Positions 51,635 through 55,747 of a DNA stretch of 64,000 nt are shown in pieces (the stretch's first letter is position 1; every line of letters begins with the position of its first letter). The position numbers and the translations under genes are program-made. This DNA is from Chiloscyllium plagiosum (lineage: Eukaryota). The stretch lies in assembly GCF_004010195.1 (NCBI RefSeq), contig NC_057756.1, positions 4,634,504 through 4,698,503 of the forward strand, given 5' to 3'. The notes under the pieces were generated by a model, which did no database searches, was not told where the DNA came from, and worked only from the letters and a program-made list of their open reading frames with translations.

Positions 51635-51700
51635 CTGGAGCAACTGAAAGTGTTTGGTGCAGAGCAGAGTTTCTTCTATAATTTATCACTGTCGTATATT
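51635..51700 (-). CDS. Candidate cytoplasmic exon of the minus-strand Ig receptor (EYTTVINYRRNSALHQTLSVAP)
   Basis: taccacatag|AA...CCAG|GTAGAG, 66 nt, symmetric phase 1-1, open. Confidence 0.4.
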
Positions 51701-52298
51701 CTATGTGGTAATAGTATTTAAGGAGTACATTTCATTTTATGCATAGCACGTAAAACCACAAGGAGAGTCACATATGGCCAGATCATAAATGATAATGCCA
51801 GGTAAATATCATAATATATGGAATTTTGAGTGCTCCTAGGGTCATTGAGCAAATGTCTATTTCCATATTCACGTTTATTAATGAACACTGGGTTTTCACT
51901 TTTCAAAGTGCAGTCTGCTTTATTGTCGTTGAATGCATAATTCAAACGCATTGATACCCAGTATAAGGTTTAGTGTGCCGTCCTTCCATGTAAAGGAACC
52001 TACATGTGGTAAGAGAGTAGTCACTCGTACTTGCAAACAGAAAAAATCTATATCCTGGGTCTTTTTCAACTTAACATAATAGACAGACGTGAATTGTTGC
52101 AACAACCAAATACAATCAGACTGCATCGTTTTTTTTTCCCTAAAAGCACTTAACTATTAGTCTTTCCCTATACCATATCAAAGTTGCCTCAAATCCAATT
52201 GCACTGATGTACATTATTTCCTCAGACAGCCGAAAAGATTTTGTCACTTTATTTCCCTTCTTGAGAAAGTCCTCTTGAGTGCAATTCAGATAGAAAAA

Positions 52299-52458
52299 AT
52301 AGATAGGTAGATGGATAGATAGATAGATAGATAGATAGATAGATAGATAGATAGATAGATAGATAGATAGATAGATAGATAGATAGACAGACAGACAGAC
52401 AGACAGACAGACAGACAGACAGACAGACAGACAGACAGACAGACAGACAGACAGACAG
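52299..52458. repeat. Compound (GATA)n(GACA)n microsatellite
   Basis: Direct reading. Confidence 0.97.
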
Positions 52459-53325
52459 CTGTTTATCTGTATATGGCTTTAAAACAAAAGCTGTCACATT
52501 GGTGTCACATTGGTGCAGATCAGCGAAGTTGAACGTAACAGAATCAATTGAATATCACGGACAACAAGAAAATTGCAGAAGATATTATAGATCCTTACAA
52601 TAGGTGTATTTAATGATAATCTTCATACCAATACGCAGTGGCAACTAAAACTTTGGAATTCCAAAATGCATTACATGCCAGTTGAATGGTGTTTTGGTGA
52701 TGAATTTGCTTTTGAAAAATATTCAAAGTAAGTTAGTAAGTTTGATATTAGGGACTCTAAAAAAGAGCAATTAAAATCAACCGATTTTATCGTTGCATTA
52801 AGCTTGATATTGAAGCTGAGCCAGTCAATTGAGCCAAGCAATTGATCAAATTGCTTGTGACCAAATACATATTTAGCTATTGAAATGAAATGTAAAACGC
52901 CGAGGATATCTAATAAACAATCGATTCCAAGCAAACTTTGGTTTATATTCGAGGGAATTATATTGAATATTTACTTGCTGTCTATCATGTGCTTTCCGAA
53001 TTCGGCCAGCAGATGTCATTCTTGGAACCAATCTATTAAAATTCATACACACAGATTGAACAAAAACACTTTCTGAGCTGACAGAACAAAGCCTTCTCTT
53101 GTTAAGTTTTATTTATTTTCTCGTATGGTTATTAAATACTAACGGAGCAATAAAGCCACAGAAACATTAATCTTTCAGGACAATCTTGTGATACTTTGTA
53201 GCAACATGCAACAATGCTATAATAATGATTCATGTTGCGTATGGATTTCATTCATGACACCATTAATATTTCTAGCCAAAAAGGTCATATAAGTTATTGA
53301 AACAGATACAACTTCTGTCAGTTGT

Positions 53326-53643
53326 GGGCGGCACGGTGGCACAGTGGTTAGCACTGCTGCCTCACAGCGCCAGAGACCCGGGTTCAATACCCGTCTCAGG
53401 CGACTGACTGTGTGGAGTTTGCACGTTCTCCCCGTGTCTGCGTGGGTTTCCTCCGGGTGCTCCGGTTTCCTCCCACAGTCCAAAGATGTGCAGGGTCAGG
53501 TGAATTGGCCATACTAAATTGCCCGCAGTGTTAGGTAAGGGGTAAATGTAAGGGTATGGGTGGGTTTCGCTTCGGCGGGTCGGTGTGGACTTGTTGGGCC
53601 GAAGGGCCTGTTTCCACACTGTAAGTAATCTAATCTAATCTAA
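53326..53643 (+). mobile_element. HE1-type SINE, full length, young
   Basis: A and B boxes, near-identity to the 33202 copy, (TAATC)n tail. Confidence 0.95.
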
Positions 53644-53873
53644 GCTTAACTCATTATACTTACAGTGCAAACAGGAAAAAGAAATTGTTCATTTTCTCTT
53701 AACTTCTGTGAAGCGGTGACCAAGATTCCATCTAATCCTGTCAGTTCATTATTCAACCCCACTCATGCATCATATTTTCATTGCAGATTTTTCTCCTCTA
53801 CCAATCCGTCTGATTGCAAATACCCATTCATAACGTTGACGATGAGAAAACCTTATTTCCATGCTGTATATAC

Positions 53874-53940
53874 CAGTGAGTCCATTCATTTTCACGACCA
53901 CATAGTCTTCAAATTCCACAGAAATGTTATCTCATGATTT
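53874..53940 (-). pseudogene. Candidate cytoplasmic exon with in-frame TGA (KS*DNISVEFEDYVVVKMNGLT)
   Basis: Acceptor ttccttgataccag, donor CTG|GTATAT, phase 0 to 1 in the tyrosine-containing frame. Confidence 0.33.
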
Positions 53941-54036
53941 CTGGTATCAAGGAATACTGAATTCATGGTGCCATATTTCCAAGTTAATTACCACATACAA
54001 CAAATGGACAAACGTTCAACGAGGCTACACCCTACA

Positions 54037-55078
54037 ACGAGGCAGGTCGTGCCTCACAAACCTTGTTGAATTCTTTGAGAAGGTGCCTAAGGAATTGGAC
54101 GAGGGTAAAGCGGTAGATGTGGTGTATTTGAATTTTAGTAAGGCGTTTGATAAGGTTCCCCATGGTAGGCTCCTGCAAAAAATACGGACGTATGGCATTG
54201 AGGGTGAGTTGGAGGTTTGGATTAGGAATTGGCTGGCTGGAAGAAGAGGGTAGTAGTTGATGGTAAAGGTTCATCTTGGAGTGCAGTTACTAGCGGTGTT
54301 CCGCAAGGATCTGTTTTGGGACCATTGCTGTTTGTCATTTTTATAAATGACCTGGAGGAGATGGCTAAAAGGTTGGGTCAACAAGTTTGCGGATGATACG
54401 AAAATCGGTGGAGTTGTTGACAGTGAGGAAGGATGTGTCAGGTTACAGCGGGATATAGATAAGCTGCAGAGCTGGGCAGAAAGGTGGCAAATGGAGTTCA
54501 ACGTAGGTAAGTGTGAGGTGCTTCACTTTGGTAAGAGTAACAAAAAGATGGGGTACTGGGCTAATGGTCGATTACTTGGTAGTGTGGATGAGCAGAGGGA
54601 TCTTGGTGTCCATGTACACAGATCTCTGAAAGTTGCCACCCAGGTAAATAGTGCGGTGAAGAAGGCATATGGCGTACTGGCTTTTATTTGTAGAGGAATT
54701 GAATTCTGGAGTCCTGAGGTCATGTTGCAGTTGTATAAGACTCTGGTGCGGATGCATCTGGAGTATTGTGTGCAGTTTTGGTCGCCATACCATAGGAAGG
54801 ATGTGGAGGCACTGGAACGGGTGCAGAGGAGGTTTACCAGGATTGGTAGGTATAGGACAGATGTTAGGGGTAGATTCTTTACTCAGCGAGTCGTGAGTTC
54901 ATTGAATGTCCTGCCAGTAGCAGTGGTGGACTCTCCCTCTTTATGGGCATTTAAACGGGCATTGGATAGGCATGTGGAAGATAGTGGGCTAGTGTAGGTT
55001 AGGTGGGCTTGGATCGGCGCAACATCGAGGGCCAAAGGGCCTGTACTGCGCTGTATTTTTCTATGTTTCTATGTTTCT
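54037..55078 (+). mobile_element. CR1/HER1 LINE, 5'-truncated, young, with internal deletion
   Basis: [43 protein letters not shown]; tail ttctatgtttctatgtttcta. Confidence 0.97.
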
Positions 55079-55625
55079 AAACCCTCTGTTGAAGAGTAAA
55101 TCATCTACCTTGATAGGATGTTATCATTTGAAATCAAGTAGTGATTGTTAAATTATTGCTTACATATCGACGTTAGTCGGGTTATAATTGAAAAATATTC
55201 CAGCAGCAAATTTTGAACAAGTTTTCATTTAGGACAGGAAATCGGCTCAGCCAACATCAAATAATTTGGATGTCAGTTTACCTTAAATAAATAGCACACT
55301 AATATTATCCACACCTCTTCAAGTGAGCTAAATTGTCTAATTATGAACAAATAAGATGATTTAAAATGTACACAATGATGCAAGCGTTCATTGATTTTTT
55401 TTTTACAAATTGTAATCTGAAACGTCCATATTCAATCTTATCAGATTGTTGATAGGGTGTAAATTAGACAGATATCTATGATGCTGTGAAACCACAAATA
55501 TAGTTATATCATGCTGAAAGAGATATTGGTTACTGCCATTGCACAGCCAGTTTTACTCTAAACATATTACTGCTATGCATGACCAACCAGTACTAATAAA
55601 AAGAATATTATCACTTACCTTTCTT

Positions 55626-55747
55626 CTAGAGGGCGACACATTTTTTTTTGATAATGAGAATGACTGTTCCCAACACTGCTATACAAGAAACCACGGCGAT
55701 TATTGTAAACACGTTGTACGAGATCCGACATTCCAAACTGTCTTCAC
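55626..55747 (-). CDS. CD2/SLAM/CEACAM-type Ig receptor, exon 4: stalk, TM and short tail (GEDSLECRISYNVFTIIAVVSCIAVLGTVILIIKKKCVAL*)
   Basis: Acceptor gtcatatag, phase 1; 21-aa TM then KKK; TAG at 55628-55626; exon runs on to donor AAG|GTAAGT after 55619. Confidence 0.88.

Follow-up and report, generated by a model that had tools for sequence, protein, structure and literature searches.

A transcribed two-Ig-domain receptor gene of the bamboo shark Chiloscyllium plagiosum has lost its cytoplasmic tail and probably keeps the decayed exon that encoded it

In the stretch of Chiloscyllium plagiosum DNA analyzed here (64,000 nucleotides, hereafter the window), a transcribed gene on the minus strand encodes a predicted membrane protein with two immunoglobulin (Ig) domains that has lost its cytoplasmic tail. 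The tail loss is real, and the route to it is already known from mammalian CEACAMs. To judge from alignment, the segment at 43864-43721, 12 kb away from the transmembrane (TM) exon, is the ancestral last coding exon in decayed form. We favor, with a probability of roughly 0.55, the reading that the gene now makes a putative tail-less ligand or adhesion molecule, or a decoy, with no signaling of its own, and we prefer this to a slowly decaying gene, to which we give distinctly less weight. Under the favored reading, the last cytoplasmic exon would have been broken by three stops, the tail being lost first, and the codons behind the membrane would then have drifted, leaving the present TAG as one end among several that are interchangeable (7 residues behind the membrane here, 10-11 predicted in other alleles). 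The ectodomain would have stayed under some selection after the death of the tail, and the product would be a short-tailed membrane protein without signaling motifs of its own.

The gene comprises a leader exon with a phase-1 donor (62542..62641), an open IgV exon (59430..59741), an open IgC2/I-set exon recognized by Pfam (56673..56939), and a 129-nt TM exon of phase 1-1 with a weak acceptor (55619..55747). The leader-IgV-IgC2-TM frame is open, with no disabling change over 266 codons, which bears out an earlier statement, made in a preliminary description of this DNA, that the ectodomain is intact. XP_043539270.1, the NCBI model for C. plagiosum (266 aa), matches the IgV exon at 100% identity; it has the same 266 open codons and terminates at the same TAG as the window reading. 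Because this model was probably built on the same assembly, it lends no independent support to the TAG; it is silent on remnant tail exons and on other alleles, and its label, "coxsackievirus and adenovirus receptor-like", looks like an automatic best-hit name. The model starts at 62641, and the methionine shared with orthologs (M13, invariant) stands at 62605. Pfam finds two Ig domains in the predicted protein (V-set, E 2e-7, for the IgV exon), and structure prediction gives a pair of Ig folds followed by a C-terminal helix (mean pLDDT 79), with a 21-residue hydrophobic stretch at residues 239-259. The IgV domain matches the V-set profile without the canonical B-F disulfide, its cysteines (79, 85, 97, and 101) lying outside the B and F strands; further cysteines are found in the IgC exon (161, 205, and 210) and the TM exon (233), and the structural cysteines and tryptophans are all conserved relative to orthologs. 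The four non-canonical IgV cysteines are invariant in 7 of 7 aligned proteins and are a possible family signature.

The TM exon ends in a perfect consensus donor (AAG/GTAAGT), preceded by an A9 run (55641..55649) and by a TAG (55626..55628) that stands 7 nt before the donor and 7 residues from the hydrophobic stretch, an arrangement reported in the preliminary description and confirmed here in the sequence. The A9 looks like the true sequence of the source animal: all 140 sampled words are present in each of three sequencing runs from what may be the source sample, and the probability is 0.90 that the sampled words include one spanning the whole A run. Two contigs, X9 and X11, come from the only two contig runs chosen as probable RNA; both are spliced, joining the IgC exon to the TM exon at a GT..AG boundary at a depth of about 9, and this joint is why we take them as RNA. 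They carry 55 or 104 further letters past the IgC acceptor, and they continue across the TM donor as far as 55453 and 55426 in the intron, so that the start of the intron (55426..55618) is retained. Depth in the bin crossing the donor amounts to a single contig. A junction from 55619 to 53940 had been predicted, with an acceptor near 55514 as an alternative. No joint from 55619, to 53940 or elsewhere, appears among the splice joints shown (30 more lie outside that view), and the contigs cross the site near 55514 unspliced. Internal priming on A runs of precursor RNA can yield contig ends close to such runs; the contigs end 22-49 nt short of an A10 run at 55404-55395, just beyond the retained segment, and unspliced intron pieces are present at a depth of 3-4, so the read-through may represent internally primed precursor RNA. 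For X21, about 2% of the run was covered as raw reads, none of which fell on the exons of this gene.

The end of the TM exon varies among samples. X9 and X11 have one extra base, for which the A9 run is a candidate place, and differ from the window in three or four other letters near the TM exon; placement of the extra base from word shares gives likelihoods of 0.004 to 0.039, favoring some differences inside the TM exon. A relative, organism B (X18, about 4% different over the compared piece), lacks 2 nt at 55636, where its depth also dips. The loss of 2 nt yields the same reading frame as the gain of one, and in organism B the TAG falls out of frame. Provided that the base gained by X9 and X11 sits no further downstream than the TAG, the two kinds of allele would skip this stop and end after 10-11 residues, presumably at a TAA inside the donor itself (55617-55615). 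Taken together, the read-through of the donor, the extra base in the contigs and the two bases missing in the relative make the TAG look like one drifting allele of a dead tail. A separate difference concerns position 56879 (IgC codon 20), which encodes valine in the window and alanine in X9, X11, and organism B; the letter in the window thus looks derived or private.

Orthologs in six sharks and rays carry the tail that this allele ends without, which upholds the earlier claim that a receptor has lost its cytoplasmic portion. The proteins compared, all of them predicted gene models, are Heptranchias XP_067831557.1, Pristis XP_051901297.1, two Mobula species (XP_072122203.1 and XP_062911284.1), Hemitrygon XP_072918054.1, and Hypanus XP_059827125.1; they share the IgV-IgC2-TM arrangement and the cysteine pattern, with ectodomain identities of 43-58%. 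Multi-Ig proteins dominated a search of cluster representatives, which contributed a single further ortholog (P0126, Hypanus), and word-indexed, length-limited searches returned no annotated ortholog from another carpet shark. The ortholog tails span 17-97 residues and follow a TM exon that closes in phase 1, as read from isoform divergence points and from a two-frame solution, free of conflicts, in which the acceptor shifts by 4 nt; the phase 0 proposed previously for this exon does not agree with them. Long tails bear tyrosines at two roughly conserved places. Neither the ITSM (TxYxxV/I) nor the canonical ITIM pattern occurs in any of the eight tails scanned, the Hypanus tail read by eye has no ITSM, and none is present in the remnant exon at 43864-43721. 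The idea that the tail once bore an ITSM therefore finds no counterpart in the eight tails. In Heptranchias and Mobula (P0002/P0003 and P0011/P0012), two acceptors 4 nt apart follow the TM exon, and the resulting isoform pairs contrast a long tail with tyrosines with a frameshifted tail that has none; the ability to switch the tail off may be ancient in this family. Two of the models depart from the common layout: P0126 (Hypanus) has no IgC2 exon, and P0006 (Hemitrygon) has no TM exon and its product would be secreted.

The remnant exon (43721..43864) comprises 47 codons and a stop, with an ATTAAA at 43694. When the long Heptranchias tail (P0003) was used as a tblastn query, the best among the matches listed was 43891-43724. 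In an ungapped placement, the Heptranchias last exon scored 44 at exactly 43864, with 9 as the next best of 127,708 placements, and no shuffle of 500 reached this score; the placement used the last 48 Heptranchias positions, with the segment start picked after the match had been seen, and in a looser local search 8 of 300 shuffles did as well. Identity is 17/48, the natural stops align, and the segment adjoins the acceptor ranked first of 3335, a ranking that covers the minus-strand AG sites below the TM exon and uses a rough home-made weight matrix. The reading frame is interrupted by premature stops at 43831-43829, 43744-43742, and 43741-43739. It contains no indels, which, together with the top-ranked acceptor, argues against a very old decay. 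A profile of five tails fails to single out this segment (840/1000 shuffles) and separates no other, and the last exons of rays place it between 1197th and 5376th of 63,866; only Heptranchias matches. Upstream lies a probable penultimate tail exon of 80 nt (43977..44056), open from phase 1 to phase 0, which would link the TM exon to the remnant in the Heptranchias frame; its donor, at 43976 and 112 nt upstream of 43864, ranks second of 3045. Homology of this exon to ortholog tails is not significant (256/1000 shuffles), it ties at rank 4-6 of 404 against deduced ortholog tail DNA, and tail DNA deduced for Heptranchias and Mobula from two-frame isoform pairs has no local match clearly above controls. 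The preliminary description had attributed the loss to one fresh stop or A9 slip before a usable tail; with three stops in the true last exon and a variable end to the TM exon, that account does not hold. Another candidate for the last exon, 46268-46147, was rejected, since it scored no better than 40/1000 shuffles against Pristis, had no profile support, and stands in the wrong order relative to the exon at 43864. The same segment (46147-46268, minus strand) has an open 40-codon frame with TLYAYL after a good acceptor (rank 66), without homology support.

The three stops in 47 codons of the tail, against none in about 240 codons upstream, suggest that the tail was dead before the ectodomain. 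Assuming that one, two, or three of these stops arose neutrally in the 47 codons, 240 upstream codons would stay free of stops for an equal time with a probability of 0.16, 0.027, or 0.004, values that stepwise trimming of the tail by stops may weaken. The ectodomain has nevertheless changed about twice as fast as that of Heptranchias, with lineage-specific changes of 31 vs 13 (P 0.01), 26 vs 14 (P 0.08), and 27 vs 13 (P 0.04), a difference compatible with either relaxed or positive selection. At 21 of the 84 sites where five orthologs agree, the residue has changed here, and two glycosylation sequons are among the conserved sites lost.

This faster change, together with the failure to find an annotated carpet-shark ortholog, keeps slow decay a serious rival. 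The gene would still be transcribed under this alternative, with constraint relaxed over its whole length; the tail would have broken first, and the ectodomain would be open merely for want of time. Such a history, which we consider possible and clearly less probable than a tail-less ligand or decoy, would account for the loss of conserved sites and sequons, the weak TM acceptor, the unspliced intron pieces, and the three or four other letters and the indel that separate samples near the TM exon. Against it stand the absence of any stop or frameshift in those 240 codons and the retention of 63/84 invariant sites compared with 49/108 variable ones, although old selection alone could give the latter; depth over the IgC exon of organism B also indicates no deletion, in a test that insertions could escape. 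A different alternative, which we regard as improbable, is that the contigs are precursor RNA only and that mature mRNA joins the TM exon to the 80-nt exon (at 44056), which is then spliced to 43864. Equally improbable is its extension, that some alleles have a longer tail, of about 30 residues as predicted for the +1 and -2 forms. The perfect TM donor, the high ranks of the donor at 43976 and of the acceptor at 43864, and the 3'-limited look of contigs that end near the A10 run speak for such splicing. However, both contigs are unbroken across the donor, no second contig occupies that bin, and the ancestral tyrosine-bearing frame is closed in every allele modeled, so this alternative would alter the length of the tail and not its loss.

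The preliminary description had proposed instead a SLAM-like receptor recently severed from an ITSM-bearing tail encoded by 53940-53874 (67 nt, with EDYVVV and one TGA) and 51700-51635 (66 nt, outside the read-depth stretch). The ITSM is found as TxYxxV/I in the tails of the SLAM family. Both segments exist and, when joined, read TEYTTV, and their phases fit an A8 reading of the run; their status as exons and the significance of the motif were not confirmed. The IgV domain here, a V-set match without the canonical disulfide, is like that of SLAM proteins (PMC12084948), and 51700-51635 weakly resembles the Heptranchias tail in another, closed frame (10/1000 shuffles; at the DNA level, 14 of 139 windows do equally well). 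In the frames proposed, however, neither segment matches an ortholog tail better than 53/1000 shuffles, their acceptors rank only 387th and 1581st of the 3335 sites, and neither spliced run has any depth on 53940-53874. The tyrosine of EDY is replaced in organism B by phenylalanine at 53903, and no change at the TGA is seen among the five of seven differences shown for that piece. With the same thresholds, 5 of 16 control stretches (5.6 kb each) also produced an ITSM, either spanning a junction or within an open candidate exon; chance readily yields short tyrosine motifs when the junctions are picked by hand. None of the orthologs has TEYTTV, their TM exons end in phase 1, the true last exon lies elsewhere, and the contigs read through the donor instead of splicing to another exon. 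The proposal is thus largely refuted, and the ITSM tail is probably intron DNA that happens to read this way. It would be still less likely that the assembly contains a homopolymer error and that the gene in fact carries A8 with an open tail behind it. An A8 run gives the phase-0 frame of the preliminary description and restores a Ser-Arg pair found before the donor in most orthologs, and X9 and X11 do differ by one base here; yet that difference is a gain and not a loss, the runs of the possible source sample contain all the sampled words, and the downstream exons are closed regardless. In Heptranchias, Cys-Val and Ser-Arg share a frame; this would place an old +1 change behind the A run. Between the TM exon and 53940-53874 lies a LINE fragment (54033-55080), reads from related copies of which are plentiful in all four runs.

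As for family, the best sequence and fold matches of the tail-less receptor are CEACAM1, 5, and 6, whose identity is 19-23% and whose lead over CD2, CD48, and CAR is slight; the top fold matches also include CD2, CD48, and CD58. At about 20% identity, a relation to CEACAM, CD2/SLAM, or CAR amounts to a putative placement. The SLAM-like identity suggested earlier is disfavored, with CEACAMs closer than SLAM proteins among solved relatives and no ITSM in any ortholog scanned. CD2/SLAM proteins, CD48, and CD58 likewise combine an IgV domain without the canonical disulfide with an IgC2 domain, and in CEACAMs an N domain without a disulfide precedes an A-type IgC2. SLAM genes stand in a gene cluster; self-comparison of the 64-kb window with the TM and proposed tail exons as queries found no paralog, intact or otherwise, and the window has no flanking markers. 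CD48 is GPI-anchored, whereas the full helix and the basic residues behind it argue against a GPI anchor here, and PD-1 is a single IgV domain with an ITIM and an ITSM, unlike the two Ig domains without an ITSM described here. The N-terminal IgV of the SLAM family is described as having no canonical disulfide and its IgC2 as having two disulfides (PMC12084948), and CEACAMs as ending in an ITIM or ITAM tail or a GPI signal, with a CEA homolog reported from a skate EST (PMC4079198). This gene differs from CEACAMs in its full helix with basic residues and in the lack of a canonical ITIM in eight ortholog tails. Literature searches found no paper on this gene, although the supplements of the CEA survey might yet include the family.

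The mammalian parallel lies in horse CEACAMs. As set out in one study, CEACAM45, 53, and 54 have a stop in the TM exon, leaving a full helix and a short tail, CEACAM42 has an extended TM exon with a stop and an 11-residue tail, and old cytoplasmic exons persist in the gene (PMC5856374); a route of this kind is also described for CEACAMs with a GPI link in primates and pig (PMC2832619). The shark gene shares this route of tail loss. The horse genes are paralogs beside an intact, ITIM-bearing CEACAM1, whereas no such neighbor is seen in the shark window. A more specific version of our reading, in which a CEACAM/CD2-like receptor of sharks and rays was turned into a tail-less decoy with a positively selected ectodomain, independent or compensating indels steering different alleles to the stop in the retained donor, and no intact paralog in the window, is tentative and, on balance, doubtful. 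If true, it would be a decoy conversion in bamboo sharks of a family for which we found no description in the literature searched. More broadly, the locus offers a clear cartilaginous-fish case of the mammalian CEACAM route, with the tail gone and the ectodomain kept, and the fossil tail exon makes it possible to date the loss among carpet sharks. What had been surprising in the first reading, an ancient ITSM receptor, is not provided by this locus.

Besides this gene, the only recognized coding frame in the window is that of a rhodopsin-type GPCR, a 309-codon open frame at 540-1469 on the minus strand (Pfam 7tm_1, E 8e-16). The window also holds near-perfect tandem duplications at 40500-41281 and 42441-42763, of about 390 and 162 bases with 98-99% identity, which are either recent events or assembly artefacts.
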